Shown one piece after another: positions 18,137-44,574 of a stretch of 44,574 nucleotides of DNA. The notes below the pieces were generated by a model. The model was not told the origin of the DNA. It saw nothing but the letters and a program-made list of their open reading frames with translations, and searched no databases. The translations under genes and the position numbers were made by a program. How positions within the stretch are numbered: the stretch's first letter is position 1; each line of letters begins with the position of its first letter. Source of the DNA: a bacterium (GTDB lineage: Bacteria; Patescibacteriota; Saccharimonadia; Saccharimonadales; UBA4665); contig JAJZWH010000001.1 in NCBI GenBank assembly GCA_021846765.1, positions 1 through 44,574 on the forward strand, read 5' to 3'.

Positions 18137-18137
18137 A

Positions 18138-20244: not shown

Positions 20245-20316
20245 ACTTAAGGTCAATAAGATGCTATAATTTTTAATAGAATAAGCATTATTTAAATAAT
20301 TTAACAAAAATATCCG

Positions 20317-20805: not shown

Positions 20806-20859
20806 TTTATTTTTATTGTAAAAAGTAAGTTATAATTAACTTAAAAGGCATACGCTTGG

Positions 20860-21969: not shown

Positions 21970-22570
21970 TTTAATGCCTCCTGAAATAAAAAAATCATAT
22001 TACTATGCTGAGAAAAATGACAAATTAATTAAGTTAGTACTCCTACTTATTATTGGTTTATTGGGAATTGGCATAATCGGAACCTATGGATGGGTTAGTT
22101 TGCATAGATCAATTAATTCCCAAAAGCAAAACGTAGCATATTTAAAAACAAATTTACAAAAGAATAATCTTGTAGCAACAGAAAATCAGGTAACAACTAT
22201 ATCCAATGATTTCTCTTTAGTTGTTAAAGTTTTATCTCAAGAAGTAGTTTTCTCAAAATTATTAACCCAAATGGCCGGAGCACTGCCCAGTGGAGTAAAC
22301 TTAACCAATCTAACTATTAACAACACAACATCTGGTTCGGGATTAGACATTACAGCAGAAGCACTCAATTACAACCTAGCAACACAAGTACAAGTCAATT
22401 TAGCCGACCCGGTAAATGGTATTTTCTCTAAAGTAGATATAGTCAATATTAGCTGTAATAGTCAAACATCCTCAGGCACAGTGGCCACTTATCCTTGTAT
22501 TGTTAACCTTAGAGCTGAATTTGCTAAAAACAACCAGTTTCTATTTATTAATCAAGGGACTAGCAAATAA
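21962..22570 (+). CDS. pilN: PilN-like bitopic protein
   Basis: The start motif INLMPPE, a single TM helix, and its position after pilM (8-nt overlap). Confidence 0.7.
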   Translation: MINLMPPEIKKSYYYAEKNDKLIKLVLLLIIGLLGIGIIGTYGWVSLHRSINSQKQNVAYLKTNLQKNNLVATENQVTTISNDFSLVVKVLSQEVVFSKLLTQMAGALPSGVNLTNLTINNTTSGSGLDITAEALNYNLATQVQVNLADPVNGIFSKVDIVNISCNSQTSSGTVATYPCIVNLRAEFAKNNQFLFINQGTSK

Positions 22571-23184
22571 TGAAGTTGAAAATTAATAGTCAAACAATTT
22601 ATTACCTAATGATTAGTCTAGTAGTCCTTATTGTTATTATTAGTCTTATAGCAACGAACGAAATTGTCAGTTTATTGGGTCAGCAAACAAATTCATTAAT
22701 ATCTCTAAAAGCCCAGAGTCAAGCCTTGACTAGTGAACAAGCCAATTTAGTTATAGCTAAAAAAGATGTTCTTAAATATTCTTCATTAGAAAAAATAACT
22801 CAATCAATCGTACCCCAAAATAAAGATCAAGCCCAAGCAGTCAGAGAAATAGTTAATCTGGCTCAACAAAATAATATAACCCTTAACTCTATAATTTTTC
22901 CAACTTCAACACTAGGTAACACAATTCAACCCAGCTCTAAGCTCTCCCTGTCCCAACTTACTCCAGTCAAAGGAATACCGCGAGTATACACACTGCCAAT
23001 TCAAGTACAAGTTAACCAAACAAATGATGCTGTCAGCTATGGTAGTTTTTATAATTTCTTAACAGACCTTGAACAAAACAGATTAACTTCTCAGGTTACC
23101 AGTTTAACCATTCAACCCCTAGCAACAAATCCCAAGCTAATTACCTTTTCGCTAACAATAAATGAATATATAAAACCATTATGA
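22570..23184 (+). CDS. pilO: PilO-like bitopic protein
   Basis: Single N-terminal TM helix plus a coiled coil. Its start overlaps the pilN stop by 1 nt. Confidence 0.55.
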   Translation: MKLKINSQTIYYLMISLVVLIVIISLIATNEIVSLLGQQTNSLISLKAQSQALTSEQANLVIAKKDVLKYSSLEKITQSIVPQNKDQAQAVREIVNLAQQNNITLNSIIFPTSTLGNTIQPSSKLSLSQLTPVKGIPRVYTLPIQVQVNQTNDAVSYGSFYNFLTDLEQNRLTSQVTSLTIQPLATNPKLITFSLTINEYIKPL

Positions 23185-23477
23185 ATAAAACTAAAAAACC
23201 AACAACCAACCAAAATATTCAAGCTATTGCCATTAAGCTTAAAAAATTTGCATGGTTAATTATATTAATCTTTTTCTTGATTATTTATGGATATATATAC
23301 CTGAAGATTAATAGTTTCGAAAGCCAACAACCATCATCGTCGGCCATTAGTTCTGACTTAAAAACTAGCGTTCAGCCAACTATTAACCCTAAGGTTGTTC
23401 AACAACTAGAAACACTTAAAAACAACTCGGTTAGCGTACAGGCATTATTTAATCAAGCTCGACACAATCCATTTTAA
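23181..23477 (+). CDS. Small bitopic membrane protein, last gene of the pilus operon
   Basis: ATGA overlap with pilO and one TM helix (FAWLIILIFFLIIYGYIYL). Confidence 0.5.
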   Translation: MNKTKKPTTNQNIQAIAIKLKKFAWLIILIFFLIIYGYIYLKINSFESQQPSSSAISSDLKTSVQPTINPKVVQQLETLKNNSVSVQALFNQARHNPF

Positions 23478-23490
23478 ATTTTAGTAATAG

Positions 23491-24525
23491 TCAAATTAAG
23501 GAAGCTTGATTGTTATCCTGGTTATTAATTTTGCCTAAATGGATGTAGGATTTAGAAGTTACTTTTCTTCCCCTAGGCGTACGTTCCAATAGACCTATCT
23601 GTAATAAATAAGGTTCTATCATATCCTCAATAGTCGTTCTTTCTTCGGCGGTAATAGCTGCTAAAGTTTCAACTCCAACCGGACCTCCATTGTAGTTATC
23701 AATTATAGTAGCTAGCAATAAACGATCAGTAGGATCTAGACCAAGCTCATCTATATCTAATAATTCCAAAGCTTTATAAGCCGTATCAGAGTCTATAATT
23801 CCGTCTCCATTAATATCCGCAAAATCTCTAACTCTCTTTAGCAACCGATTAGAAATCCTTGGTGTTAAACGAGACCTAACAGCTAATATATTGGCTGCCG
23901 ATGATTCAATTTTAACATTTAAAATCTTTGCTGCTCGATTAATAATTGCTTCAATCTGAGGAATAGTATAAAAATCTAAACGATGCACCAACCCAAATCT
24001 ATCTCTTAGCGGAGCTGCAATCGCTCCGCTTCTTGTTGTTGCTCCAATAATCGTAAAGTGTGGTAAATCGAGTCTTAAACTTCTAGCCGATGGCCCCTTG
24101 CCGATCATAATATCTAACTTAAAGTCTTCCATGGCTGTATATAAAACTTCCTCAACAGTTCGATGTAAACGATGAATTTCGTCTATAAATAAAATATCTC
24201 CATCAGAAAGATTAGTTAATAAACTAGCTAAATCACCTGGTCTTTCGACTGCCGGTCCGCTAGTAATCCTAATCTGAGCATTCATTTCGTTGGCAATCAC
24301 ACTGGCCATAGTAGTTTTGCCTAAGCCAGGAGGTCCATAGAGCAAGACATGATCCAATTGTTCATTTCTTTTTTGAGCAGCAGCAATAGCTAGCTTTAAA
24401 TTGTCCTTTAATCGATCTTGGCCAATATAGCTATTAAAATCCTTGGGTCTAAGGGTATTCTCTATTAACGAATCATCATTTTCTAATTCATTATCCGATT
24501 TGGAATTAACTATTCGATCTATCAT
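23491..24525 (-). CDS. ruvB: Holliday junction helicase RuvB
   Basis: Carries [21 protein letters not shown], and DEIHRL followed by GATTR. Confidence 0.95.
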
Positions 24526-25994: not shown

Positions 25995-26486
25995 TCAGGT
26001 TATAAACTGAGCATGAGTAATAGCTGCAGCTAGAGCATCTGCTGCATCATCAGGTTTAGGAATTTGTTCTAAAGTTAAGAGTATCTTAACCATTTCTTGG
26101 ACTTGTTTTTTATCTGCTCTGCCATATCCAGTTATAGCCATCTTAATCTGCAGTGGTGTATATTCTGCAATCTCTAATTTTGCTTGGACTCCAGCTAGTA
26201 AAATAACTCCTCTAGATTGAGCAACAGTCATAGCAGTAGTAACATTACGAGCAAAATATAGTTTTTCAATGCTTAACCATTGAGGTTTATATTCTTCTAT
26301 CAACTGTCTAACTTCATCGTATATTGTTAACAGCCTAAGTTCGGCAGCCTGATTAGCTGGCGTTCTAATAACTCCTGCATCCACTAATCTTAGATTTTTA
26401 CTGTCTGCTTCAATAAAACCAAAGCCTACAATTCCCGTACCTGGATCTATGCCTAAAATCTTTACATTTGATTGATAGTCTTTCAA
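25995..26486 (-). CDS. ruvC: Holliday junction resolvase RuvC
   Basis: ILGIDPGTGIVGFG and the C-terminal DAADALAAAITH. Confidence 0.9.
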   Translation of the reverse strand: MKDYQSNVKILGIDPGTGIVGFGFIEADSKNLRLVDAGVIRTPANQAAELRLLTIYDEVRQLIEEYKPQWLSIEKLYFARNVTTAMTVAQSRGVILLAGVQAKLEIAEYTPLQIKMAITGYGRADKKQVQEMVKILLTLEQIPKPDDAADALAAAITHAQFIT

Positions 26487-26487
26487 T

Positions 26488-27222
26488 TCAGTTAAGCTTA
26501 ACTAATATATCCTCAGGTATATCAAAATTAACATAAGTATTAGTAACATCATCTAAGTCATCTAATGCTTCCATTAATCTTAGTACTTTACCAGCAGTAT
26601 TTAAATCATCTATTTTAACCATATTAGTTGGTACATAAGTTAATTCTGCATCAACTACATTGAAACCACCGTTAAAAAAAGCCAATCTAACTTTATTTAA
26701 ATCTTTAGGATCGGTATAAATAATCGTTCCATCTTCTTCATCAATAATATCGTCAGCTCCTGCTTCAACAGCAGCCTCTAAAACTAAATCACCTTTTTCC
26801 GCTACTCTAATTAATCCTCGTCTTTCAAACTGAAAAGATACACTACCCTTTTCCGCTAAATTACCTCCATGTTTAGAAAATGCAAGTCTAACATCAGGAT
26901 ATGTACGATTTATATTATCTGTCATGCACTCCACCATAATAGCTACCCCACCAGGACCATAGCCTTCATATAACAATTCCTGTAATTGAGTAGCGTCTTT
27001 GTCTTTTTGTCTATCAATCGCTCTTTGAATATTAGACATTGGCATATTAGCAGCCTTAGCTTTATCAATTGCTAGACGTAATGAAAAATTAGTTTCTGGA
27101 TCAGTGCCATTTCTTGCAGCCACAGCAATAGTATTACCTAATCTGGTAAAAACAGCGCCACGAGCTGCATCTTTCACCCCCTTTTGTCGCTTAATAGTAG
27201 ACCATTTACTATGACCGCTCAT
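26488..27222 (-). CDS. yebC: YebC/PmpR family transcriptional/translational regulator
   Basis: The MSGHSKWSTIKRQKG start and the length (244 aa) are canonical. Confidence 0.9.
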   Translation of the reverse strand: MSGHSKWSTIKRQKGVKDAARGAVFTRLGNTIAVAARNGTDPETNFSLRLAIDKAKAANMPMSNIQRAIDRQKDKDATQLQELLYEGYGPGGVAIMVECMTDNINRTYPDVRLAFSKHGGNLAEKGSVSFQFERRGLIRVAEKGDLVLEAAVEAGADDIIDEEDGTIIYTDPKDLNKVRLAFFNGGFNVVDAELTYVPTNMVKIDDLNTAGKVLRLMEALDDLDDVTNTYVNFDIPEDILVKLN

Positions 27223-27286
27223 ATACTATCCTTCTTAATACCATTTTACATCTGTTATTTTAGCACACAAGAATAACTTATAGACA

Positions 27287-27314
27287 TTGACTTTTTATAT
27301 CAACCAAGGATAAT
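27287..27314 (+). promoter_or_regulatory. Sigma70-like promoter TTGACT-16 nt-GATAAT for tRNA-Lys
   Basis: -35 at 27287-27292 and -10 at 27309-27314. The tRNA starts at 27336. Confidence 0.45.
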
Positions 27315-27335
27315 GAAAGAAGTTATTTAAACTAA

Positions 27336-27412
27336 GGGCCCATAGCTCAGCCGGTTAGAGCACCTGCCTTTTAAGCAGGGTGTCGTGGGTTCGAGTCCCA
27401 CTGGGCCCTCCA
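27336..27412 (+). tRNA. tRNA-Lys (anticodon TTT), CCA encoded
   Basis: Acceptor GGGCCCA/TGGGCCC, anticodon stem CCTGC/GCAGG with loop CTTTTAA, T arm GTGGG-TTCGAGT-CCCAC. Confidence 0.9.
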
Positions 27413-27495
27413 ATCTATCCCGAGTTAAAAACTATCGCAACTAAGAGAGGGAGTATATAAAGTCCTTAGCGGGAATAATCTGCTAAAATATTCTT

Positions 27496-28152
27496 GTGAC
27501 CAACCAACAAATAATTCAACAAACCAAAGATTACGTAGAAAAACAATTCAGTGGCGAGGGAACTGGCCATGACTGGTGGCATATGTATAGGGTCTGGAAA
27601 CTAGCAAAACATATAACCTCCAAAGAATCTAAAGCTGATATGTTTGTGGTTGAGTTAGGTGCTTTGCTCCATGATATTGCAGATTGGAAATTCAATGATG
27701 GCGATATGGAAGCGGGACCAAAAGCTGCTCACAAGTGGCTTGAGTCCTTAGGTGTTAACGAAGACATAATTCAAGCAGTTGAAGACATCATACGTAATGT
27801 TTCATTCAAAGGCGCACAAGTTAAACAAAATATGAATTCACTTGAAGGTCAAATAGTCAGCGATGCTGATAAGCTTGATGCGGTTGGGGCTATTGGGATT
27901 GCCCGAACATTTGCATATGGAGGAGCTCATGATACCCCAATTTATGACCCAAATATAAAACCTGTTAATCATAAAACATTTGAGGAATATAAGAACAGTA
28001 AGTCGCATACCATTAACCACTTTTACGAAAAGTTGTTGCTTCTAAAAGATAAGCTATATACACAAACCGCTAGAGATATTGCCACTCATAGACACGAATT
28101 CATGCAACAATACCTAGATGAGTTCTATAAAGAATGGGATGGTGAGCTTTAG
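27496..28152 (+). CDS. HD-domain phosphohydrolase (YedJ-like)
   Basis: GTG start. Carries GHDWWH...LLHDIADWK...DADKLDAVGAIG. Confidence 0.8.
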   Translation: MTNQQIIQQTKDYVEKQFSGEGTGHDWWHMYRVWKLAKHITSKESKADMFVVELGALLHDIADWKFNDGDMEAGPKAAHKWLESLGVNEDIIQAVEDIIRNVSFKGAQVKQNMNSLEGQIVSDADKLDAVGAIGIARTFAYGGAHDTPIYDPNIKPVNHKTFEEYKNSKSHTINHFYEKLLLLKDKLYTQTARDIATHRHEFMQQYLDEFYKEWDGEL

Positions 28153-28180
28153 AAGCCATAAACTTATTAAATAACCCCTA

Positions 28181-28309
28181 CTAGGAATAGACTGAGCTTA
28201 ATCGTTTCTTACTAAGTTGTTCTTGTCTGTATTGATTATCCAAAAGAACTCTCCATCTAAGGAGTTCTTCAACATAAATATATAACTTAATTCCTTGGTG
28301 GGCCTCCAA
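28181..28309 (-). CDS. Mini-gene copy A (42 codons, TTG at the repeat edge): LEAHQGIKLYIYVEELLRWRVLLDNQYRQEQLSKKRLSSVYS
   Basis: One of three gap-free paralogous units. The frame is open to the same TAG in all copies and the substitutions are enriched for synonymous changes. No SD lies upstream and the start codon is uncertain. Confidence 0.5.
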   Translation of the reverse strand: MEAHQGIKLYIYVEELLRWRVLLDNQYRQEQLSKKRLSSVYS

Positions 28310-28402
28310 ATGTTCTTCACAACAGTTTGTAAGATAAGAATATTAGAATTTTAGTTGCATAACTATTGATTCTTGCAGCAATTTGTTTTTCCGTATCTGT
28401 TA
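28303..28402. repeat. Repeat module 2, copy A (~100 nt)
   Basis: Aligns with 29876-29974. The first ~60 nt are about 90% identical by hand count (CCTCCAAATGTTCTTCACAACA.TTTGTAAGATAAGAA...GAATTTTAGTTGCATA). Confidence 0.8.
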
Positions 28403-28495
28403 AAAGGTCTAATCTTACTAGGTGTTTTTGTTTGCACTTATCTCAATTAGCTGTTTTGATTGTAAATATTAATAAATAGTTGATAAAATTATCCC

Positions 28496-29233
28496 ATGTC
28501 AGAACAAGTTGATATAAAACAAGTAAACATAGCTTTTGCTGGTCTAACAGCCGCAGGGAAAACAACTCACTCCAAAATATTAGCCGAACAATTAGGTTTT
28601 GAGTATATTTCGGCCACTAAAACCATACTTGATATTATGGGTATGGATAAAGACCCCGATAGAGCCTGGTTAGATAGTTATGATGAAATCGAAAAAGCTC
28701 GTGAAGGTGACAGAGCTGACATTGAACTTGAAGCACGTATGACTGAATTAGCAAATACTCATAGTGGTCTTGTTTTGGATACCTGGGCTATGGCTTGGAT
28801 TTATAATGGCTCAACCCCTATGGTAAGATTATGGATAGAATCAGATGAAGATTCTCGTACTAGAAAGTGCTTTGTATCACAAGGTTCAGATAAACAGCGT
28901 GATTTAGACGCCAGCAGACTGTTAATAAACCAAAAAGATGGTGATACTAGGACTAAATTCATACGAAGACTGGGCTTTGATTTATTTACCGATAGACATC
29001 GATATGATGTTATTGTCGACAATACACAATTAATACCTGAAGCAACGGAAGCGTCAGCTAAAACTGGTATAAAAATATTCTCTCCTGTTGTATTAGCGGC
29101 TGTAAAATACTGCATTAATAAAATCACTAATCCATCTTTTGACATAGACAGTAATTATGCCAAAAATCTTATTAGAAGCTCAAATGGCATGATAATAAGC
29201 TTAGGAAGCGAGCATAAGGAGTCTTATGAGTAA
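28496..29233 (+). CDS. P-loop kinase, cytidylate-kinase-like (archaeal-type CMK/AAA_18-like)
   Basis: Walker A GLTAAGKTTHS. Overall resembles (d)NMP kinases. The C-terminal ~70 aa are unassigned. Confidence 0.6.
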   Translation: MSEQVDIKQVNIAFAGLTAAGKTTHSKILAEQLGFEYISATKTILDIMGMDKDPDRAWLDSYDEIEKAREGDRADIELEARMTELANTHSGLVLDTWAMAWIYNGSTPMVRLWIESDEDSRTRKCFVSQGSDKQRDLDASRLLINQKDGDTRTKFIRRLGFDLFTDRHRYDVIVDNTQLIPEATEASAKTGIKIFSPVVLAAVKYCINKITNPSFDIDSNYAKNLIRSSNGMIISLGSEHKESYE

Positions 29234-29780
29234 ATCAGAAATTGTATTAATCACGGGGAACGTAAATAAAGTGCGTGAATATGAACGTTTATTGGGTGTG
29301 CAGCTTGATTATCAAAATCTTGATTTGCCTGAAATTCAGGCTACTGATGTTAGACAGGTAGCTCGCAACAAAGCAGAGAACGCTTATGGGATCGTCGGTC
29401 GTCCATGTTTTGTCGACGATACGGGTCTAACGATTGAAGCATGGGGTCAATTACCAGGAGCATTAATTCGTTGGTTTCTCGATAACGTAGGCAATGAAGG
29501 ATTACTTAAAATGCTAGATTCAAATCAATCTCGCTCTGCTTACGTTACAACGGCTATTGGGTACTGTGATAAAAATGGGTTTAAGCTTTGCGAAGGACGA
29601 ATTAATGGAATAATAGCCAATGAGCCAAAAGGTGACAATGGGGTTGGTTATGATACAATCTTTATTCCTGAAAACCAGACTAAAACATTTGCAGAAATGA
29701 CCAATGAAGAAAAAGATTCTAGATCTATGCGTGCCTTAGCAGCAGCTGCAATGAAAACTGATTTGCAGATTGGGGCATGA
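29226..29780 (+). CDS. rdgB: Non-canonical purine NTP pyrophosphatase (RdgB/HAM1, ITPase)
   Basis: Carries VLITGNVNKVREYE, FVDDTGL, and GYDTIFIP followed by TFAEM. Overlaps the kinase gene by 8 nt. Confidence 0.8.
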   Translation: MSKSEIVLITGNVNKVREYERLLGVQLDYQNLDLPEIQATDVRQVARNKAENAYGIVGRPCFVDDTGLTIEAWGQLPGALIRWFLDNVGNEGLLKMLDSNQSRSAYVTTAIGYCDKNGFKLCEGRINGIIANEPKGDNGVGYDTIFIPENQTKTFAEMTNEEKDSRSMRALAAAAMKTDLQIGA

Positions 29781-29852
29781 CATCTATACCAACTGTTTAA
29801 GACTTATGCAGACCTCAATTCACAGATAAATATCTGGGAAGCATGTAGTTTA

Positions 29853-29878
29853 GTTGCAATAGTTTCACACAAAGACCT
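29853..29878. repeat. Repeat module 3 (26 nt, GTTGCAAT...CCT), copy B
   Basis: GTTGCAATAGTTTCACACAAAGACCT matches the 30597 copy at 21/26 and the 32479 copy at 19/26. Confidence 0.7.
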
Positions 29879-29974
29879 CCAAATGTTCTTCACAACACTT
29901 TGTAAGATAAGAAGTATGGAATTTTAGTTGCATACCTAAGCTTCGCATCGGCAATTCGTTTTCTCCATCTGTTA
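29876..29974. repeat. Repeat module 2, copy B
   Basis: See 28303-28402. Here it directly abuts module 3 with no mini-gene in between. Confidence 0.8.
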
Positions 29975-30047
29975 TCAAGTTCTATATCACTTTGTCTATT
30001 CCACTTATGCTTGCTACATCGCATAAAAAAGACTTTAATAGAATATT

Positions 30048-30551
30048 ATGAGCAAAGGGGAAGATTTAGGAGATAGAACAACCGAAGAATTTTCTAGAGC
30101 AGTTAGCGAAAAGATTTTGGGTGTTTTTGCGGTACGTAGAGAATTTAGGGAAGTAAACGCTCGCCGACATAAGACAGAGGAAGAGGCAACCTTTCGAGCA
30201 CCTAAAGGTTTTGTGTTTAGAGTTGTAGCTTTGAGTGATGGGGCGTTGACTTCTATTCACGACGGGCATAAACCAAAGCCTTGGTATGAAGAACGAAAAC
30301 GTGGCGATATAGTTTATGCACCTGTAATAGATTGCCATAGAAAAGATGGATTTACTTGGTCAACCTATACGTCATGGCTAAATGGTCCTCTAGAGTTTGA
30401 ACTTCCATCTTATGTGGCAAGTAGGACGCCGACAAGTATAAATAATGAGGACGTTCAAATTGACTTAGTTAGGGTTGAAGAGCTTGTTGCTGCACATACA
30501 AGGCGTGAGCCTTTGTCTAGAATACAGTTGGAAGAAGATGCTACTGTTTAG
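30048..30551 (+). CDS. Hypothetical protein (167 aa)
   Basis: Clean ORF that looks G+C-richer than its neighbours by eye. No recognisable motif. Confidence 0.55.
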   Translation: MSKGEDLGDRTTEEFSRAVSEKILGVFAVRREFREVNARRHKTEEEATFRAPKGFVFRVVALSDGALTSIHDGHKPKPWYEERKRGDIVYAPVIDCHRKDGFTWSTYTSWLNGPLEFELPSYVASRTPTSINNEDVQIDLVRVEELVAAHTRREPLSRIQLEEDATV

Positions 30552-30596
30552 TTATATAGTCTGATAATAAATATCTCTTCATTTATGTTAAGGATG

Positions 30597-30622
30597 GTTG
30601 CAATCACTTCACACAAGGCCCT
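30597..30622. repeat. Repeat module 3, copy B'
   Basis: GTTGCAATCACTTCACACAAGGCCCT. Its end plus the next 5 nt (GGCCCTCCAAT, 30617-30627) is identical to the tRNA-Lys 3' end (27404-27414). Confidence 0.7.
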
Positions 30623-30679
30623 CCAATAATTTCATTTCTAGACCCCTATTTATTTAGAGGGTTTCTTATATTAATAAGT

Positions 30680-31450
30680 ATGGGTGCTTACAATACAGAA
30701 ACTTACGAAATCAGTCCGCACTTTAAGTATTCTATCGCAGACAACCCTTCATTAGACAGTTTAAAACAACTAGCAAATATTGATATAAAGAGCGAAACAA
30801 GTGAATTTAGTAAAGCTGAGTATATAATAGGCTTCTCTCATCAGTTATTTACGCACAATGGAGACAACGAACCATCTGCTGCTGACCCACTAACTATACT
30901 CAGAGAGGCAAAAGAAGGGCAATCGTTTCGATGTGTTGAATATAGTACGTTGGCTATGGGATTGCTGTGGGCCTACAAAATACCTGCCAGAACTATTGGG
31001 CTGAAAACATGTGACGTAGAAATTCGTAAATATGGTGCTGGGCATGTAGTAATTGAGTTCTGGTGCAAAGATTATAACAAATGGGTTATGTGTGACGTGC
31101 AAGCAGGTATTATCCCTAAACATAATGAAATTCCAATATCTGCCTATGAGCTATCAAATTATCTTAAATTTCATGAAACTATTACTTTTGCACCTATAGA
31201 ACACTCCAGATTCAAACAAAATAGTAGATATGGCGACAAGAAAAGCTATGAAGAATGGATAAAAGACTATCTATGCTTTATAGATACACCCCTAGACTTA
31301 ACGTTTGATATTAAAGATAGACGAAAACAGCAAATTGTAATGTTGGTGCCACTTGACAAAAAATATCCAAAATCTTTTCAGGGATTGTTTGACATGAATG
31401 CCCTGTATACTCATAGCGTAAAAGACTTTTACCCAGAACTACACATATAA
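30680..31450 (+). CDS. Transglutaminase-like cysteine peptidase superfamily protein
   Basis: Cys-His-Asp spacing: FRCVEYSTLA..., GAGHVVIEFW..., WVMCDVQ. Confidence 0.65.
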   Translation: MGAYNTETYEISPHFKYSIADNPSLDSLKQLANIDIKSETSEFSKAEYIIGFSHQLFTHNGDNEPSAADPLTILREAKEGQSFRCVEYSTLAMGLLWAYKIPARTIGLKTCDVEIRKYGAGHVVIEFWCKDYNKWVMCDVQAGIIPKHNEIPISAYELSNYLKFHETITFAPIEHSRFKQNSRYGDKKSYEEWIKDYLCFIDTPLDLTFDIKDRRKQQIVMLVPLDKKYPKSFQGLFDMNALYTHSVKDFYPELHI

Positions 31451-31456
31451 CTCCCA

Positions 31457-31594
31457 CTAGGAATATATCGAACTGAATCGTTTCTTGCTAATAAGCTCTT
31501 GCCTGTATTTGTTATCCAGCAATCCTCTCCATCTAAGAAGTTCTTGGGTGAAAATATATAACTTAATTCTTTGGTGGGCCTCCATGTTACTCAT
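31457..31594 (-). CDS. Mini-gene copy C (core 42 codons from ATG 31585; in-frame ATG at 31594 gives MSN-MEAHQRIKLYIFTQELLRWRGLLDNKYRQELISKKRFSSIYS)
   Basis: The ATG at 31594-31592 overlaps the TGA of the upstream 288-aa gene (ATGA), which suggests translational coupling. Confidence 0.6.
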   Translation of the reverse strand: MSNMEAHQRIKLYIFTQELLRWRGLLDNKYRQELISKKRFSSIYS

Positions 31595-32457
31595 GTTTTA
31601 TATGACGGATTGCAATAGTCACAATATCCTGCATAAGCAGTTTTTTTCTGATGAGGAAAAATTACGTCTTGGGTGAATTTGCATTTATCACACTCGTAAA
31701 CATCATACAAAGGGATGTCAGTCAGTCTCCCGCACTGTTCACAGGGTAAGCCTGGTTTAGGCGAAATCCTATGAAAACCAGGAGTATTACAGCTAGGACA
31801 TAATCTTTTTATATTTTCTATTAGGTCTTTAGTAGCTACCTCTATGTTTTTCATTCTTGATTTATTAACATGCGCCCTAAAGTCTGTTTCAAGCCATATT
31901 GATTTGTATTTCTCTAGATAGTTTGTGGCAATTTCAATAAGATTATCTTTAGTTACTATTCCCTTAACCATATTTTTATATTTTTTCTCTGAGCTTCTTA
32001 TGACAATGCCATGTTTTGGGAAGTTAATGTTATCTGCAAACTCTAAAACTTCTTCAAGGTTATTGGCTGTAGTATTTTGTGCATAACTGACTATCTCTAC
32101 ATGACCACCAAATATTTCCAGACCGAGTTTATTATCTATAAAAACAACTATTTCGGTATTGGTTATGCCAAAAGGAGCTGCTGGGTGTGGACCAAAGGTA
32201 CCTTCACTGGCAATTCCTAAATCTAAGTTCAATAACTCCATTGCAGCTTTAGCTTTAATGATTGCTGTTTCTTTTTGATTAGCGGGTCTTTCTTTATCTA
32301 GGGTAAAAGTACCGAACTTATCTGTATCTAAGTCTGTGGGTACTAATACTTCTATTCCAAGTTCCTTCATAAATAGAGGTGCTATGACTTGTTCTTTTTT
32401 ATGCTTTGTCCCTAAGGCAGCTTTTCTAGAATTCAATAGTGTACTTATATTAGTCAT
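31591..32457 (-). CDS. Uncharacterised 288-aa protein with a C-terminal double CxxC zinc-ribbon
   Basis: CPSC...CEQC and CDKC...CDYC in the last 70 aa. I do not recognise the N-terminal ~210 aa. Confidence 0.65.
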   Translation of the reverse strand: MTNISTLLNSRKAALGTKHKKEQVIAPLFMKELGIEVLVPTDLDTDKFGTFTLDKERPANQKETAIIKAKAAMELLNLDLGIASEGTFGPHPAAPFGITNTEIVVFIDNKLGLEIFGGHVEIVSYAQNTTANNLEEVLEFADNINFPKHGIVIRSSEKKYKNMVKGIVTKDNLIEIATNYLEKYKSIWLETDFRAHVNKSRMKNIEVATKDLIENIKRLCPSCNTPGFHRISPKPGLPCEQCGRLTDIPLYDVYECDKCKFTQDVIFPHQKKTAYAGYCDYCNPSYKT

Positions 32458-32478
32458 TTTATAATTATATTAGAACAT

Positions 32479-32504
32479 GTTGCAATAGATAAACAATCAA
32501 ACCT
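32479..32504. repeat. Repeat module 3, copy D
   Basis: GTTGCAATAGATAAACAATCAAACCT. Immediately followed by the mini-gene unit D. Confidence 0.6.
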
Positions 32505-32514
32505 ATAACTCCCA

Positions 32515-32661
32515 CTAGGAATATATCGTACTTAATCTTTTCTTGCTTAGCTGCTCTTGCTTATACAGAATATCCAAAAGTTGTCGCCACCTAAGGAGTT
32601 CTTGGGTGAAAGTATATAACTTAATTCTTTGGTGGGCCTCCACGAACTGTATTTCATTCAT
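32515..32661 (-). CDS. Mini-gene copy D (core 42 codons from GTG 32643; in-frame ATG at 32661 gives MNEIQF-VEAHQRIKLYTFTQELLRWRQLLDILYKQEQLSKKRLSTIYS)
   Basis: Same frame, length and stop as copies A and C. Lies upstream of, and on the same strand as, the 288-aa gene. Confidence 0.55.
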   Translation of the reverse strand: MNEIQFVEAHQRIKLYTFTQELLRWRQLLDILYKQEQLSKKRLSTIYS

Positions 32662-32759
32662 TTTTCTGTTTAAGTTAGGTAAGTTGTATCTGTAAATAGG
32701 GCTGATTTCTGTGGGGTAAACTTTTTGGTCTTTTTTAACTGAAAATCCAGCAGGAAATA

Positions 32760-33618
32760 TTAAGTCTTTGGATTGGCTACTCTATCAACGTGTTGTGGGT
32801 TGTTAGGGTCAAACTTAGCTTGTGATAAATAATTAAACACTTCAGTTGCAGACCTACCATTTTTTAGTTGATTAGTGATATATTCAGCCATCTGTTTGTA
32901 GCCAACATAGTATGCAATATCTTTAGTAAAGATTGCTTGCTTAGTACCCAAGTTATCACCCCTACTACCTCTGTAGATACGGTCAATGTGTCCCCATACT
33001 CTAGGAGCTAGTGATGATATCGCTGCTTCGTCAGCACCTTGTAGCTGTAGCCTTACTAGCTGACGCGCATAGCTTGATTTCAAACATCTCTTTACGAGTT
33101 CTCTGAACTCCATCAACAGTACCAAGAGCTAAAGCAATATCAACATAACGGTCGTATGCTTTATCAGGAAGCTGTCCATTCACAGCTTCTTCTGCTAATA
33201 CTCCGAGTCCTTCTTCAGCATCTAAATAACCTGCAAGTCCAGTGGCTAGTTTCTTATCGCCAGTTTTATAGCCATTCTTTCCTCTAAGAGCATGGACTAG
33301 TAGCTCATGCGCCAGTAATGCACGCGCGTCTTTAGGCGAAGCAGATTCACGACGAGACGCAATCTTTATTTTACGGTCAGAGGCTTCGACAGAAAGCGAA
33401 GTACCGTCGGTTGAAACAACTTGCCATTCACTCCACTCAGGGTCATTATTATCTGTCAAGTCCCCGAAATCTTGGACACTTTGTCTCGGACCTCTGTTAA
33501 CATGACTTTTCCGATGAAGGGACTCTTCAGAATTATGTGTAAACTTGTATATAATATTACATGGTCTAGATATGTTAGACGAAACAGCTATTCGAGAAAA
33601 AGCCGACGAAGATGGCAT
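32760..33618 (-). pseudogene. Decayed HExxH metalloprotein gene (DUF1704-like), frameshifted and 5'-truncated
   Basis: ORFs 33031-33618 and 32760-33125 overlap in different frames. HELLVH plus EEGLG motifs sit in the first ORF, and the second continues the same protein. There is no credible N-terminus. Confidence 0.6.
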
Positions 33619-34030
33619 AACTCATATATCTACAGGAGTTGCTGTTGTTAAAGATGGTCAAATTCTGTTGGTGCGCCGCTCAAAGGATGACTTTCTTGGA
33701 GGTTATTATGAATTACCTGGTGGCGGTGTTGATAATGGAGAAACAATCGAACAAGCCGCAATGCGTGAAATCAAAGAGGAAACAGGTTTAGTGCCTTCTA
33801 AAGTTATAACAACATTCAAAGGATTTGATTATAAAACAGATAAAAAGCCATTCGTAAGACAAGTTAATTTAATTATCGAAGCTAAACCTGGAGAAGTTAA
33901 GTTAAGCCCTGAGCATGATGACTTTTTATGGGCTAACAAAGATGACTTAGGCAATATCAAGATGACTGAAAATATGATTGATTGTGTTTATGATGCGTTC
34001 TCTAAGCTAAATGCCTTGTTTTACGTCTAG
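33572..34030 (+). CDS. Nudix hydrolase
   Basis: Nudix box GGGVDNGETIEQAAMREIKEETGL. I prefer ATG 33572, because the TTG at 33545 overlaps a perfect TATAAT (33550-33555). Confidence 0.8.
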   Translation: MLDETAIREKADEDGITHISTGVAVVKDGQILLVRRSKDDFLGGYYELPGGGVDNGETIEQAAMREIKEETGLVPSKVITTFKGFDYKTDKKPFVRQVNLIIEAKPGEVKLSPEHDDFLWANKDDLGNIKMTENMIDCVYDAFSKLNALFYV

Positions 34031-34041
34031 AGAATTAAATT

Positions 34042-34611
34042 TTAAGTTTTGTTCTTAACCCACTTCTTGAATTCTTCTACGCTTTTAACATTATTTCTTA
34101 AAACCGCTTCATAGATATTGAAACTATCTGTTTTAATTTCTTTATCATTTCTAGCTGCTTTTAACTCAAGAATTATCTTTTTAGTCTCATTATTGAGTCT
34201 ATCCTTTATCCAATCATTATTGATTCTAAGGGTATCTTCGTTCCCAAACCAAATATCCACTTTCCATCTATTTTTAGAGAAATCATTTTTTACACCTACA
34301 TAATAAGCCTTAGGAAATTCTGGATGATTTTTAGAACTATGCTTAACAAAATCGTAATACAAATAACCGTTCCATTGGTTTTGTTGGATAAGCTGATTTA
34401 ATGCCTCTAGTGCAGCTACTCTGGCCCTATCTGTAGGAACTATTACATATATATCAAGGTCTGGCCCTAGCATTAAGTTATAATCATAACTTCCAACAAT
34501 TTTGACTTCTCCAATTCTAGAAAGCAGCGAATAAATGCGTGAGTAATCTAGAAGCTTATCCGCCTCCTCGTGCCACATTCTAGATAAAGTCAGAAGTCCA
34601 ATTATTTCCAT
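34042..34611 (-). CDS. Pol-beta-superfamily nucleotidyltransferase-like protein
   Basis: GS...DLD signature (VKIVGSYDYNLMLGPDLDIYVIV) followed by a helical C-terminal domain. Confidence 0.55.
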   Translation of the reverse strand: MEIIGLLTLSRMWHEEADKLLDYSRIYSLLSRIGEVKIVGSYDYNLMLGPDLDIYVIVPTDRARVAALEALNQLIQQNQWNGYLYYDFVKHSSKNHPEFPKAYYVGVKNDFSKNRWKVDIWFGNEDTLRINNDWIKDRLNNETKKIILELKAARNDKEIKTDSFNIYEAVLRNNVKSVEEFKKWVKNKT

Positions 34612-35042: not shown

Positions 35043-35702
35043 ATGGAAAACCAAGACAATAATCAATTTACTCAACCGAGCGATGTTCAACCCAGCTATA
35101 GTAATAAACCACAATCTACAAATAGATTAGTAAAAATATTAATATCTCTATTAGTAATATTGGTTATTGTAATAGTGGGATTAGGAGTATACGTTTGGCA
35201 ACACAATAAAGTAGTCGATCTAACCAAGCAATTGAATTCGACGAAAACAACAATTCCTCAAGACAAAAAAACTGATAATGTCTTGAGCTATAACTCTCAA
35301 CAATTTACGAACCTTATCTATAGTCAGTTGCAATCAGTTATGCCTAGCAACTACACCATAATTAACTCAACATCTAGCCCCACTACATCAGACACTATTG
35401 CGGTTAGCGTTGGCCACGAGATATCTAATACAGCTGAAAATGTTGGTCCAGGAATCGCTGCAACGGCTTATAACTTTATAGTTCAGCCTCAAGGATACAC
35501 AATAACCTTGTACTGTTCAGCGCTGTCATCGAACAACAATCCATCATGTCCTTCAACCGTCCAGACAGCGATAGAAAAATTGGTTAGTAAAGAGATGAGT
35601 GGTTTTCAATATATTAAAAATGGTGGCTACCTAGATGGTTTAGATGGACCCAATCCTAAAGTTGACGTATATAAAAATAACTTAATAGATTGTTATTGTT
35701 AA
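35043..35702 (+). CDS. Membrane-anchored extracytoplasmic protein (N-terminal part of a probably longer gene)
   Basis: A Gln/Asn-rich N-terminus and one TM helix (LVKILISLLVILVIVIVGLGVYVW), then a Ser/Thr/Asn-rich region. Confidence 0.6.
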   Translation: MENQDNNQFTQPSDVQPSYSNKPQSTNRLVKILISLLVILVIVIVGLGVYVWQHNKVVDLTKQLNSTKTTIPQDKKTDNVLSYNSQQFTNLIYSQLQSVMPSNYTIINSTSSPTTSDTIAVSVGHEISNTAENVGPGIAATAYNFIVQPQGYTITLYCSALSSNNNPSCPSTVQTAIEKLVSKEMSGFQYIKNGGYLDGLDGPNPKVDVYKNNLIDCYC

Positions 35703-36093
35703 TTACAGTAGTTTTGGCAATGGTACTTTTCTAGGCTGTTCAGATAAAAGCGAATATCCTGTTGTATATCAAGAAGTTCAGTCGTTACTAAATGCTACAC
35801 CAACTACAGGCTCCGGATCTCCGCAGCCAACTACCAAACCACAACTAGTTTTCCCCGCTCCTTTCATTGGAAATAGTCAGACTAATGGTTATAAATATGC
35901 CTACATGGGTTACGGTGCCGCTGAGGGATACTTTTATAAAGAAGGCAATATCTGGTACTATCTTGGCTCTGGTCAGTTCGGTTTAAATTGTACTCATTTA
36001 AGCTCCAACACAAGCACTAATATTCAAGCCATGATTGCTTTTCAAGGTCAACCATGCACGACTAATAACGGCAATAGCTCAACTGTACAGTAA
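35689..36093 (+). pseudogene. Continuation of the 35043 gene in the +1 frame (frameshifted C-terminal part)
   Basis: The frame of the 62-aa ORF (35905-36093) stays open for 72 codons upstream, to 35689, with no ATG/GTG/TTG. It overlaps the end of the upstream ORF by about 12 nt. Confidence 0.45.
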
Positions 36094-36267
36094 AATTTAC
36101 AGATAAAATAATTTAATTATTAACAGTCCTATACACTCCAAAAGAGTTCCATTAAAAACAAGAGATTGGCATATTTCAAGCAAGAACCTACTACTCCTAC
36201 TTCGGTATCAAGTTATCTGCCTAAGTTCAAGCTGTTTAGCATAATCAACTACCATCATCTTTTTACT

Positions 36268-38403
36268 CTAGTAAAAATCGTGGAGTTTTAATTTATCTCG
36301 TAAAATAATTAACGGCTTTGGTAGCCACCAATTATATTTACCTAGTAATTTCATACTGGCCGGAACCAAAACTAAACGAACAACAAATACATCAACCAAT
36401 ACCGCCACTATCAAACCAATAGACACTTCTTTCATACTTACAACTTCCCCACTAGCAAATGAACCAATAACCACTAACAACAAAATTGCTGCAGTGGTAA
36501 TAATTTTGCCAGTTTTTTGTACGCCCCAAGTAATTGCTTGAGTCATATCTTCGTGCTGAGAAAAGTTTTCTCTTATTCGGCTAAACAGAAAAGTTGCATA
36601 ATCCATAGATAAACCAAAAGCTAGCGAAAATATTATAACCAGCTGAGATGCGTCCAATCCGTTTAATTTAGTAAAACCTAAAATACTAGCCAAATGACCG
36701 TCTTGAAAAATCCATACTAATACGCCAAAAGCCGCCGAAAGAGAAAGTGCAGTTAAGATAATAGTTTTAAGAGGTATAACAATACTTCCAAGAAGCATAT
36801 AGAGCAAAATCATCATCGATACAATTACTATAATCCCAACATATATTCCATCGTGTTCAATTAAGGTAATCTGATCAAGTAAATCGGCACTATTACCACC
36901 AACCATAGCTCTAATGCCTTTTACATTAATACTTCGAATAGTTTTAACTAAATTTTCATTTTGTGAAGACTGATTATTTTTAGGAATAACTTCTAAAAAT
37001 AAATAACCAGAATTTTCTCTAACCTCCCCTAAACCTTTAACCCCATTTAAGGATATTATTTTATTAATATAAGCCATTGCAGAAATTCGATTATTAATTT
37101 CTTTTAACGGAATCACTAAGTTTAGAGGCGATAAATTACTATATTTAAAATTCTTGGATAGCGAGTTAGCAACAACTCTAGCAGATGAATTTTTTGGCAA
37201 TACATTGTAATTAGAGGACGTAAACTGAACATGCAAAAAAGGCAATCCAGCAAGCAGCAATAAAGCCAGAGTAATAACAATTGTCAATAAAGGATACTTG
37301 ATAACTTTATCAACAATCAATTTCCATATATTTCCTTTTTTACTTTCTTGCATACGATAACGTTTGGGTATTATATTGGAAACCTGCAATGCGTTGACTT
37401 TTGGTCCGAGTAAAGCCAAAATAGCCGGTAAAAATAACAACGAGCCGATAACCGCAATTAAAACTGCCGCAGCCCCACCAATACCCATGCTTCGTATATA
37501 GCCAATCGGAAACAAGATTAACCCAGATACAGCAATCATAACAGTCAAGCCGCTAAAAATAACTGTTCTTCCAGCAGTAGCCATAGTTCGGCAAAGGGCC
37601 AATTCTTGATTATTAACATGAAGCTTTAATTCTTCGCGATAACGATTAACTATAAACAAGCTATAATCTATACCCAAACCAAGGCCGAGTAGTCCTACTA
37701 TATCTAAAACATAGACTGACACAGGTATGGCGATAGTTACTAATCTGCTAATTACTAAAGCGCCAATCACACCATATAATCCCAATCCTAAGGGTAGCGA
37801 TGCAGCAACTAGGCTACCAAAAATTAATATCAATAATAGAGCGACTATCGGAAAACTATATTTTTCCGCTATAGCTAAATCTTTTTGAATATACCTACTT
37901 AATTGATTATCGGTTACTGCACTACCTCCCAAACTAACAGACAATGTCTTACTCTTAATTAAAGATTGAATCTGGGTAATGTCATTGGCTTGTTGATCTA
38001 TATTTCCCCTTAAGCCTACTAAAGCATAGGTTAAATGTGGGTTATTAGAAACGAACTGTTCACCACCTTTTGCATAAAAAGAATTTGTCCCTGTTACTAT
38101 CGGTAAACTAGCAATTTTAGCAATAATCCTCTCGGCTGCCTGCTTATATGCCGACTGAGTATAAACTAGTTTTTTAGATGAAAATAGCAGTATTAATGAA
38201 TCCTGATTACCGCCAAAATCTTTATTAACAATTATATCTGCTCTTTGAGACTGAGAGTTGGGAACATTAAATCCATTATCTACTAAATCATTAAAAATAC
38301 CCGAAGCATAAACTGCTCCTCCAGCCATACATAATATTCCGAAAATAAAAAACCATAATCGAAAACGATAAATTAATTTACCAAAATTAATAAGCATAGG
38401 CAC
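36268..38403 (-). CDS. MMPL-family (RND superfamily) membrane transporter
   Basis: 711 aa with a 2 x (1+5 TM) architecture, two extracytoplasmic loops, and GLGIDYSLF / GLSMDYATFL motifs. Confidence 0.85.
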   Translation of the reverse strand: MPMLINFGKLIYRFRLWFFIFGILCMAGGAVYASGIFNDLVDNGFNVPNSQSQRADIIVNKDFGGNQDSLILLFSSKKLVYTQSAYKQAAERIIAKIASLPIVTGTNSFYAKGGEQFVSNNPHLTYALVGLRGNIDQQANDITQIQSLIKSKTLSVSLGGSAVTDNQLSRYIQKDLAIAEKYSFPIVALLLILIFGSLVAASLPLGLGLYGVIGALVISRLVTIAIPVSVYVLDIVGLLGLGLGIDYSLFIVNRYREELKLHVNNQELALCRTMATAGRTVIFSGLTVMIAVSGLILFPIGYIRSMGIGGAAAVLIAVIGSLLFLPAILALLGPKVNALQVSNIIPKRYRMQESKKGNIWKLIVDKVIKYPLLTIVITLALLLLAGLPFLHVQFTSSNYNVLPKNSSARVVANSLSKNFKYSNLSPLNLVIPLKEINNRISAMAYINKIISLNGVKGLGEVRENSGYLFLEVIPKNNQSSQNENLVKTIRSINVKGIRAMVGGNSADLLDQITLIEHDGIYVGIIVIVSMMILLYMLLGSIVIPLKTIILTALSLSAAFGVLVWIFQDGHLASILGFTKLNGLDASQLVIIFSLAFGLSMDYATFLFSRIRENFSQHEDMTQAITWGVQKTGKIITTAAILLLVVIGSFASGEVVSMKEVSIGLIVAVLVDVFVVRLVLVPASMKLLGKYNWWLPKPLIILRDKLKLHDFY

Positions 38404-39010: not shown

Positions 39011-39373
39011 ATGCAACCAAACAATCAATACACCGACCAGGCGCCTCAGAAAACAAACAATAATCAAAACCGTCAACCTACTTTGGTTATATTAGCTCAT
39101 TTAGTTTGGATAATTGGAGTGGTGATAGCTATTATATTAGCAATACGGTTTTTATTGATTCTGTTCGCTGCCAATTCTGCCAATGGATTTGTCAATTTTA
39201 TCTATACCATTAGCTATCCGTTGGCTAGGCCTTTCTTTGGAATATTTAATTATCAGATACATTACGGAGTTTCAAGAGTAGAATTTGCTAGTTTAGTAGG
39301 CATAGCGATCTATTCAATCGTTGCTTACTTAATTGCAAAAATACTAACCATTAACCATCCTCAAACTATTTAG
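39011..39373 (+). CDS. YggT-like membrane protein
   Basis: RBS GAAGGAG. IRFLLILF...FIYTISYPLARPFFGIF resembles the YggT repeat (from memory). Confidence 0.5.
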   Translation: MQPNNQYTDQAPQKTNNNQNRQPTLVILAHLVWIIGVVIAIILAIRFLLILFAANSANGFVNFIYTISYPLARPFFGIFNYQIHYGVSRVEFASLVGIAIYSIVAYLIAKILTINHPQTI

Positions 39374-39881
39374 AATGTTTTTTAGATCCTTTTCGTTTGT
39401 TGTATACCAATAACCAAAAAAAGACAATTGCCACTAAAGAGCCAAAGCCAACAATAGATGACTGGTATCTAATCAACTTTAACCAATAGGAGTTATTCAT
39501 TATAGATAGCATAATATTAGTAGGTAATAGTGGCACAATTAATATTGGAGCAAATAAACTTACAGCTAAAGATGGTATGACATTTAATAACCGATAGTGT
39601 TTAGCCACAGATCTGAATTGCAATATTATACTCAAAACCGCTGGTCCTAAAAGCAGTAATAAATTAACGGTTACGGCAGAGGGACTCAAATGCACCGGGA
39701 AAGCATAATGATGCTTGGCTAAATTGGCAGCTATGCTATTAGAATTACGCGATTCAAATGACAATAATACATATCCTAGGCACAAACTTAAAAATACCAA
39801 TGATGCGTTAATTCTAAGTAGATAAAAACCTGCTAAAGGAATTAAGAATATTACTAGTAACCATAGTAAACCGATTGACAT
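39366..39881 (-). CDS. Polytopic membrane protein, unknown function
   Basis: 171 aa, about 5 TM helices, basic C-terminus. Confidence 0.55.
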   Translation of the reverse strand: MSIGLLWLLVIFLIPLAGFYLLRINASLVFLSLCLGYVLLSFESRNSNSIAANLAKHHYAFPVHLSPSAVTVNLLLLLGPAVLSIILQFRSVAKHYRLLNVIPSLAVSLFAPILIVPLLPTNIMLSIMNNSYWLKLIRYQSSIVGFGSLVAIVFFWLLVYNKRKGSKKHSK

Positions 39882-40836: not shown

Positions 40837-40868
40837 TATTAAACCTACTTTCTTTCTATTGACGATAA

Positions 40869-42188: not shown

Positions 42189-42216
42189 AATTTATTTACA
42201 GATCAAGCTATTATAT

Positions 42217-42342: not shown

Positions 42343-42382
42343 CTAAATTCTGTTAATAATACCTATCTAAAGTTTAGCAAGT

Positions 42383-43598: not shown

Positions 43599-44574
<976 letters not shown>

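Follow-up and report, generated by a model that had tools for sequence, protein, structure and literature searches.

A cassette array at the tRNA-Lys 3′ end of Saccharibacteria: probable remains of small serine recombinase elements with attP apparently inside the recombinase gene

The window, as we call the whole stretch of DNA analysed here, comprises positions 1 to 44,574 of contig JAJZWH010000001.1 (GenBank assembly GCA_021846765.1; Saccharimonadales, UBA4665) and contains a tRNA-Lys(UUU) gene followed by an island of small accessory genes (27336-34611). We consider it likely that this island is a stack of recombinase-less remains of small elements, inserted serially at the 3′ end of the tRNA by a large serine recombinase (LSR). 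A first-pass annotation of the same DNA had proposed serial insertion by a recombinase at a tRNA attB site. This proposal is now supported by exact breakpoints in related contigs, by recurrence of the architecture in at least 20 species of Saccharibacteria, by LSR genes beside the tRNA in relatives and by an LSR remnant in the window itself. Five cassettes (C1 to C5, Table 1), 0.7-1.6 kb in size with one or two genes each, are each closed by the motif RGNCCTCCA. Every sequence considered is a metagenome assembly.

RGNCCTCCA is the core common to these sites and corresponds to the 3′-terminal nine nucleotides of tRNA-Lys(UUU). It occurs seven times in the window, always on the plus strand, with six copies lying within 27404-32642; none of 100 dinucleotide-preserving shuffles reached seven, their mean being 1.26 and their highest count 4. 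A repeat motif search of the window placed GGCCCTCCAAT at 27404 and 30617, TGGGCCTCCA at 28299, 31575 and 32633, and CCTCCAAAT at 28303 and 29876, so that every motif coordinate of the first-pass annotation proved right. The seventh core copy, GGACCTCCA, is located inside ruvB (23681-23689, +), where there is no sign of a boundary. Rfam recognised the tRNA alone, together with one sub-threshold hit antisense to it. Two kinds of repeat form the cassette ends. D1 is 139 nt long, contains a 42-codon open reading frame (ORF) on the minus strand and is present in three window copies ending at 28308, 31584 and 32642. D10 spans about 29 nt (GTTGCAATAG..CACACAAGGNCCTCCA) and ends at 29881 and 30625. 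The sites at 28308 and 29881 are each followed by a left-end module (AATGTTCTTCACAAC...).

Polymorphism of individual cassettes with breakpoints at the CCTCCA sites had been predicted, and related contigs do diverge from the window exactly at 27412, 30625/6, 31584 and 32642. Among contigs that encode an identical YebC protein and match the YebC-side flank at 98-100% identity, four different sequences are found immediately after the tRNA CCA (27412): the window type and those of L003, L007 and L010. In L003 the tRNA is followed by genes for a SpoU methylase and a peptidase S66 with a D1 unit between them, and in L007 by a gene for a 263-aa protein that is apparently membrane-associated. Five contigs (L016, L017, L019, L023 and L024) are window-like up to 30625/6, where a further cassette of about 1.28 kb, equipped with its own D10, precedes C4; two others (L006 and L030) stop at 30625/6. 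L016 leaves the window sequence once more, exactly at 31584, and L022 (GCA_027331825.1) is without exactly 31585-32642, that is, C5. The cassette edges at the core sites are genuine boundaries. The YebC-tRNA-C1 join and the membrane protein-tRNA-C1 join both recur across independent contigs, mostly named k141; we take these to be MEGAHIT contigs with a final k-mer of 141, which would span the 77-nt tRNA. We note that two k141 contigs fuse far-apart window positions through 13-nt overlaps. L002 (1-476) joins window position 35409 to 36983, skipping 35410-36982, and L006 (4218-4352, corresponding to window 28913-29047) joins 26397 to 28913 in inverted orientation. These joins are probably assembly chimeras, or could be rare rearrangements.

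The same architecture is found well beyond this population. Species-representative genomes scanned with a D1 peptide profile gave 23 loci, nearly all from metagenome-assembled genomes of Saccharibacteria/Saccharimonadales. A D1 DNA profile detected one to four units per locus in a single orientation; relative to the anchoring tRNA, every unit is on the other strand and past the 3′ end. Of the 21 species loci scanned, 15 have a tRNA-Lys(UUU) on the strand opposite to D1, 0.7-4.6 kb downstream, and one more has a tRNA-Val; two further, more distant metagenome loci are arranged alike. Over more than 80 junctions in about 28 loci, identical left ends are seen after the tRNA, D1 or D10, always straight after GGNCCTCCA (...CCTCCA). 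The array always sits between a ruvB-ruvA-ruvC-yebC block and a membrane protein-rimK-dnaJ-dnaK block. The tRNA abuts yebC (window 26488-27222, -) in some species and the 168-aa membrane-protein gene (39366-39881, -) in others (L014, L016, L035, L040 and others were compared); the tRNA-plus-array segment has thus been inverted repeatedly.

Individual cassettes are shared between otherwise divergent genomes. C1 taken alone matches L035 at 100% and L016 at 99.9%, and C1-C3 as a whole are 99.9-100% identical in both, on backbones that are only about 70% identical to the window, which indicates that cassettes moved between species recently. For C4 the identity is 99.8% in L016, where it follows a different D10, and 95.6% in L033, where it directly follows the tRNA CCA. 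The cargo of the arrays includes toxin-antitoxin pairs (RHH-PIN, RelB-YafQ, Phd-YoeB and HicAB) as well as NUDIX, HD, Ham1, SpoU, peptidase S66, DUF2268, serine hydrolase and APH (phosphotransferase-family) genes.

In one Saccharimonadales genome the array is anchored at a tRNA-Val(CAC) (L049, oriented 8859-10125; tRNA end ...CCCCACCA). Its D1 unit ends GGTGGACCACCA rather than ...CCTCCA, and its ORF has a premature stop codon. The core thus co-varies with the tRNA: the tRNA-Val ends CCACCA and is matched by the D1 end GGACCACCA, which suggests that the crossover includes the discriminator position.

Intact LSR genes abut the tRNA-Lys 3′ end in four related loci (L064, L066, L068 and L070). 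They are transcribed towards the tRNA, and their frame stays open through the junction. In L064 a 7.3-kb element extends from the tRNA-Lys 3′ end to a D1 unit beside yebC, with the LSR gene at the tRNA-proximal end and a gene for an ImmA/IrrE-like peptidase at the far end. LSRs combine an N-terminal resolvase catalytic domain, which holds the active-site serine, with a large C-terminal part (recombinase, zinc ribbon and coiled coil) in about 450-600 aa. The L064 protein (558 aa; Resolvase domain PF00239, E 5e-14) has the domain and length of an LSR, an assignment that applies to the relatives and not to the window. Its ORF has no stop before the junction and reads ...STNV|EGPVGFEPTT..., the antisense of the tRNA, in the frame of the D1 ORF (NTG GAG G..). 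In L066, on a 988-kb contig, the order is tRNA-Lys, LSR, cargo, D1, 169 nt and then an exact 18-nt copy of the tRNA end; L063 has an exact 21-nt copy. The LSR ORF of L067 runs uninterrupted into D1. L068 and L070 show the order cargo, LSR, tRNA-Lys, backbone, the tRNA being deduced from the EGPV... tails. The L070 element (647-6617) encodes a DEAD/ResIII helicase and two N6_N4 DNA methyltransferases; intact elements can deliver restriction-modification or defence-like genes. Searches by tblastn also located LSR fragments: a 135-aa C-terminal piece abutting the tRNA in L052 (E 6e-43 with the L064 protein), an N-terminal piece with the catalytic-serine motif in L007, and, in L055, L011, L010 and the window, short C-terminal remnants that adjoin either D1 or the tRNA. 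Two of these contigs, L007 and L010, are variants from the same population as the window, with flanks 99.9% and 98.9% identical.

The window remnant lies at the end of C5. An LSR body stub (32643-32775) is in frame with the D1c tail (32515-32642), and the core GGGCCTCCA is inside the reading frame. By tblastn, window 32775 to 32635 (-) matches residues 473-519 of a full-length LSR (P0065) at 83% (E 4e-20), whilst two further LSRs align continuously over stub and D1c together, P0066 over 77 residues (E 1e-24) and P0019 over 84 (E 2e-13). Judged by these alignments, 32515-32775 is the 3′ end of an LSR gene in an attP-type configuration. The remaining window cassettes keep the tail segment alone, as D1 or D10. 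The units described as mini-genes by the first-pass annotation are really the detached 3′ end of a recombinase gene, D1 being joined in frame to the LSR body solely in the attP-type arrangement. We rejected D1 as a free-standing mini-gene with three alternative starts, because the first base lies outside the unit, some copies have CTG and the frame continues into the LSR body.

The first-pass annotation had seen no recombinase, and of an intact one this holds. Pfam found no recombinase or transposase domain in the scanned window ORFs of at least 90 aa (a few short or nested ORFs fell outside the scan, and those at 39934-44510 were assigned solely via clustering with RimK, DnaJ and DnaK relatives). 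The precomputed annotation of a 99.99% identical contig (L001), covering 16.5-27.2 kb, is likewise without either. RecA, RecX and RuvABC are the only recombination proteins. The neighbouring gene for a 168-171-aa protein (39366-39881) was considered as a recombinase and rejected, being a hydrophobic membrane protein of the conserved backbone. What had been overlooked is the LSR 3′ end at 32643-32775 (-). The suggestion that the enzyme was lost from the array or acts in trans is supported, with its family present in relatives; it is of the serine type and has left a stub. The unknown cassette-shuffling mechanism that had been offered as the other possibility is not needed.

One search returned 314 LSR homologues at E <= 1e-10, mostly of 510-626 aa and on contigs of up to 988 kb. 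A profile search of a representative library gave 4,157 hits at E <= 0.001, a number that will include more distant serine recombinases; the profile contained LSR body columns, and tail-bearing members were picked by alignment extent. The family has the motif ALCRVSTxxQ, and PF07508 and PF13408 are recorded on some homologues. The conserved part ends ...FPAG..KKVY.P.IS.IY.Y..ADFT.(L/M), and what follows depends on the junction. The survey of tails covered 91 homologues, those with a locatable C-terminal FP.G motif. Forty end in EGPVGLEPTTPCLKGRCSN.LSYGP, the antisense translation of the window tRNA-Lys (tblastn 92.6%), and 16 in the antisense of another tRNA, one ending ..CCACCA. At least 12 LSRs have a D1-like tail, (L/I)xxE.xRW(R/Q)x(I/L)(L/I): P0019, P0025, P0066, P0089, P0104, P0126, P0130, P0187, P0191, P0204 and P0211, with P0152 as a close variant (RWY). 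Members of different 50%-identity clusters are among these proteins, and the helix is thus a native and ancient part of the enzyme.

Copies of D1 are 78-90% identical to one another over 139 nt. The edges are sharp, with conservation running from the second base of the apparent start codon to about 12 nt past the stop; the first base of that codon is variable and lies outside the unit, giving CTG in four units. Of 42 unique units, 26 have an intact ORF and nine a broken one. Entropy at codon positions 1, 2 and 3 is 0.39, 0.38 and 0.69 (permutation p = 6e-4); third positions are thus the most variable, so D1 evolved as coding sequence. The peptide is predicted to form a single long helix (predicted local distance difference test score, pLDDT, 89), and neither the peptide in Pfam nor D1 in Rfam had a match. 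D1 was also considered as an attC-like hairpin and rejected: RNAalifold gave no consensus fold (energy 0.0 on both strands, 41 units) and the terminal inverted repeat shows no co-variation. D10 is an internally deleted form of D1 whose frame reads M-E-x-L-V-stop. It is a possibility that D1 represents the last 17 nt of the tRNA split by a 121-nt insertion (left end CCCACTAGG against tRNA CCCACTGGG; by a rough estimate, 0.03-0.4 such matches are expected by chance, the value varying with the number of offsets permitted).

The left ends of the cassettes appear to come from the other side of the same junction. The motif ATCTGT(T/A)A occurs at fixed offsets, 33 times within 100 nt of 89 boundaries against about two expected, and many left ends have a terminator-like hairpin where intact LSR genes encode ..KKAPE.ADF... 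We interpret the left ends as vestigial LSR 3′ sequence, an assignment that tblastn confirms solely for those of the GTACGACAAATTC type. On the tRNA strand the LSR codons ..KKAPE(G/E)ADF.. form a GC-rich hairpin with a T-run (L066, oriented, 10168-10200; L067, oriented, 557-590; L010 after the tRNA). The tRNA-Lys may thus have its transcription terminator in the 3′ end of the recombinase gene.

These observations can be accommodated in a single scheme. The free circular element would carry attP inside the 3′ end of its LSR gene: the LSR body (...FPAG..KKVY.P.IS.IY.Y...) would cross an 8-9-bp core, NTG GAG G.. on the coding strand and ..CCTCCA on the tRNA strand, and enter the conserved 42-codon helix with ELLRWR. 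The LSR would recombine attP (D1-core-left end) with attB (the tRNA end). Integration would split the gene, leaving the body beside the tRNA, where it reads into antisense tRNA, and taking the tail segment (D1 or its deleted form D10) to the far end of the element, which closes with a copy of the core. Repeated insertion at the tRNA or at internal cores, combined with loss of LSR bodies, would produce an array of one- and two-gene cassettes, those without an LSR being moved in trans. The boundaries, their polymorphism, the linkage of LSR genes to the sites in relatives, a frame that runs on through the core and a conserved tail are shown directly. We infer the catalysis of the insertions by the LSR, the movement of LSR-less cassettes in trans and the position of the crossover, the discriminator T of CC[T]CCA being the probable point. 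A common core of 8-9 bp is within the range of LSR systems.

Several points weigh against this reading. An intact LSR gene is absent from the 44.6-kb window and, in most D1-bearing loci, from the 10 kb on either side. Neither an excised circle nor an empty-site pair was directly observed. LSR att sites typically show dyad symmetry over 40-50 bp; here, inspection by eye gave just a weak ATTT/AAAT symmetry centred on the discriminator T. The LSR had no detectable sequence match in the PDB. The 26 intact D1 ORFs are kept apart from any LSR, and the orphan D1 peptide could have a function of its own. Serial insertion with independent deletions could also give similar arrays without any mobilisation in trans.

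A more tentative idea, which we regard as possible but would not favour, is that the position of attP between the LSR body and the 42-residue helix acts as a state switch, with orphan tails and cores serving as landing pads for a visiting LSR. The recombinase would have its helix when the element is excised or lies beside another tail, and would exchange it for the antisense-tRNA reading after integration at the tRNA. If this were true, the direction of recombination would be set without a separate directionality factor. The landing pads, if real, would let a visiting LSR mobilise recombinase-less cassettes, making the array an integron-like gene-capture platform in Saccharibacteria that is run by a serine recombinase.

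Of the other explanations, the one that survives best, whilst still unlikely, needs no dedicated enzyme: natural transformation followed by RecA-dependent homologous recombination among D1 copies, left-end modules and the tRNA, with the sharp edges marking the limits of homology. Competence and type IV pilus genes and recA are nearby, the D1 copies share 78-90% identity over 139 nt, the D1b-D1c deletion in L022 fits a shared 29-nt 3′ stretch, and the block in common with L016 and L035 begins at the tRNA. However, the tRNA, D1 and D10 share only about 9 nt as partners and yet are joined at the same nucleotide in many independent combinations; the exact 18-21-nt copies of the tRNA end in relatives and an LSR gene built around the junction also speak against it. 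Homologous recombination probably adds to the spread of cassettes and to some deletions, without creating the junctions.

We think it very improbable that D1 is an independent gene for a 42-residue protein, such as a small regulator or antitoxin-like protein, that sits at cassette edges and resembles the tRNA end by coincidence. The proportion of intact ORFs, the third-position bias and an NTG that is usually a valid start (TTG, ATG or GTG) would suit such a gene. The variable first base outside the conserved unit and the CTG copies would not, and no Shine-Dalgarno sequence was seen upstream in the copies read. Wherever D1 adjoins an LSR body (window, L011, L067 and L069; P0019, P0025, P0066 and P0187), the two moreover share one frame, and the same helix motif ends LSRs of less than 50% mutual identity.

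Scarcely more credible, and if anything a shade less so, is an integron-like system in which an IntI-type tyrosine recombinase encoded elsewhere joins folded, attC-like D1 sites to the tRNA end, which would stand in for attI. Arrayed small cassettes with many toxin-antitoxin pairs, end repeats of constant polarity and precise exchange points all have an integron flavour. Against this, phmmer with XerD-, Hin- and IS608 TnpA-like sequences as probes gave no hit below E = 0.06 in 507 ORFs from 387 kb of D1-bearing loci. D1 lacks a consensus fold on either strand and co-variation in its terminal inverted repeat, inspection by eye revealed no RYYYAAC/GTTRRRY boxes, the genes point both ways, and it is a serine recombinase that is found linked to the sites. 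Finally, that the motifs are chance occurrences, or the evenly spread complements of GGAGG ribosome-binding sites of minus-strand genes that the first-pass annotation had itself considered, can be set aside: the bare CCTCCA is indeed frequent in the window (17 copies on the plus strand, four on the minus), but the extended core exceeds its expectation and clusters at 27404-32642, and other genomes break exactly on the core sites, so that the comparative data already refute it.

Table 1 Features of the tRNA-Lys island in the window
Feature	Position	Strand	Description
tRNA-Lys(UUU)	27336-27412	+	Intact; ARAGORN and Rfam; 3′ end ...ACTGGGCCCTCCA
Putative att core (attB/attL)	27404-27412	+	Final 9 nt of tRNA-Lys, GGCCCTCCA
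C1	27413-28308	+	HD-domain gene 27496-28152 (+), Pfam HD; end repeat D1a 28170-28308
D1a tail ORF	28181-28309	-	In C1
C2	28309-29881	+	Cytidylate-kinase-like gene 28496-29233; Ham1/ITPase gene 29226-29780; end element D10a
C2 left-end module	28309 to ~28470		AATGTTCTTCACAAC type
D10a	29853-29881		Short end element of C2, ...AGACCTCCA
C3	29882-30625	+	167-aa gene, function not assigned, 30048-30551; end D10b
C3 left-end module	29882 to ~30040		AATGTTCTTCACAAC type, as in C2
D10b	30597-30625		End of C3, ...GGCCCTCCA
C4	30626-31584	+	Transglutaminase-like gene 30680-31450 (Pfam); D1b 31444-31584
C5	31585-32642	+	DUF6671 gene 31591-32457 (-), Pfam; D1c 32502-32642
GTTGCAAT element	32479-32504		D10-related piece inside C5
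LSR gene, last 87 codons	32515-32775	-	attP-type arrangement; tblastn
Distal island part	32760-34611		No end repeat after it
MATCAP-like gene, frameshifted	32760-33618	-	Pfam; tyrosine carboxypeptidase family
NUDIX gene	33545-34030	+	Pfam
189-aa gene	34042-34611	-	

In the distal part of the island, the MATCAP-like gene is split between a pair of overlapping ORFs (121 and 195 aa), whereas L011-L013 have it whole (446 aa). The NUDIX gene and the 189-aa gene form one cassette between D10 and D1 in L040, L041 and L043. An IS3-family (rve) transposase, the sole classical transposase seen in any array, lies inside one array beside a PIN/RHH pair (L015, 310-1206, and L046, oriented, 11195-12223). 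A type IV pilus/competence set is found near the island (window 13991-23477; L063, 2270-3760; L066, 70-1524), with PilB- and PilC-like proteins, three N-methyl pilins, one of which has a ComP_DUS-like hit, PilM and PilN, and with ComEC in relatives; it is relevant to the uptake of cassette DNA. Viral contigs scanned for the tRNA end, the D1 end and D10 gave either no matches or seven chance ones, none fitting the D1 profile.

Few mobile elements have been recognised in Saccharibacteria, which are tiny epibiotic bacteria. The locus is a conserved hot spot at which toxin-antitoxin, nucleotide house-cleaning and, in relatives, restriction-modification-like cassettes are exchanged between species at near-100% identity. 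A natural attB (the tRNA end) and a natural attP (the D1-core-left-end junction) can be read straight from genomes, and such pairs are a candidate integration tool that could serve in these hard-to-engineer bacteria. A reading frame split over attP is an unusual design for a serine recombinase and makes the hypothesis about recombination direction testable.

One close comparison is with the staphylococcal cassette chromosome (SCC, including SCCmec), where CcrAB or CcrC are the LSRs, the target is the 3′ end of rlmH (orfX), and pseudo-SCC elements without ccr are among the members of tandem arrays. Common to both are an LSR that inserts at a conserved gene's 3′ end and leaves that gene active, short direct repeats of the target, serial accretion and recombinase-less members that were presumably moved in trans. 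Here, in contrast, the target is a tRNA and not rlmH, the cassettes are far smaller, and attP appears to lie within the recombinase gene so that each element leaves a detached tail. Accretion of integrative and conjugative elements (ICEs) and cis-mobilisable elements (CIMEs) at tRNA-Lys is known in streptococci. Tycheposons of Prochlorococcus have an inward-facing integrase, mostly of a tycheposon-specific tyrosine-recombinase lineage, and hallmark replication genes (bioRxiv 10.1101/2020.12.28.424599). As in both of these, the full-length tRNA is proximal, partial tRNA repeats lie between modules, degenerate elements accumulate and strain heterogeneity peaks next to the tRNA. Unlike tycheposons, the present system has an LSR with a split reading frame, and neither the tycheposon integrase nor the replication hallmark genes were found in the window or in LSR-bearing relatives.

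An attP within coding sequence has precedents. In the Sulfolobus virus SSV, attP is in the integrase gene and integration at a tRNA partitions int into two; in the integration-dependent immunity of mycobacteriophages, attP is inside the repressor gene. There too, integration alters a C-terminus and leaves gene parts at opposite ends of the element beside a tRNA, but the enzymes are tyrosine recombinases, whereas here it is a serine recombinase from which the last 42 codons alone are detached. Integrons and clusters of attC sites lacking integron integrases (CALINs) are likewise compact arrays of one- and two-gene cassettes, many of them toxin-antitoxin, each with an end repeat, in fixed polarity and often without an integrase. 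They differ from the present arrays in having IntI, a folded attC and core boxes, and here genes of both orientations are mixed, a tRNA end serves as anchor and the enzyme belongs to another family. No intI was found in the Pfam-scanned window ORFs or by the phmmer probes in the 507 ORFs, and no R''/L''-L'/R' hairpin in the 41 D1 units. The same TnpA probe and the lack of a conserved hairpin in D1 argue against an IS200/IS605-type system. Neither the locus nor an LSR whose ORF spans attP was found described in literature searches, among them searches on integrons, cassettes or tRNA islands in Saccharibacteria or the Candidate Phyla Radiation (CPR). What is found are the features of a tRNA island: insertion at the 3′ end of an intact tRNA, direct repeats, polymorphism at those repeats and a recombinase in autonomous relatives. 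The locus is of a known kind, serial site-specific integration at a tRNA followed by decay, and what is new is the placement of attP inside the LSR gene, with orphan tails in a compact CPR array.

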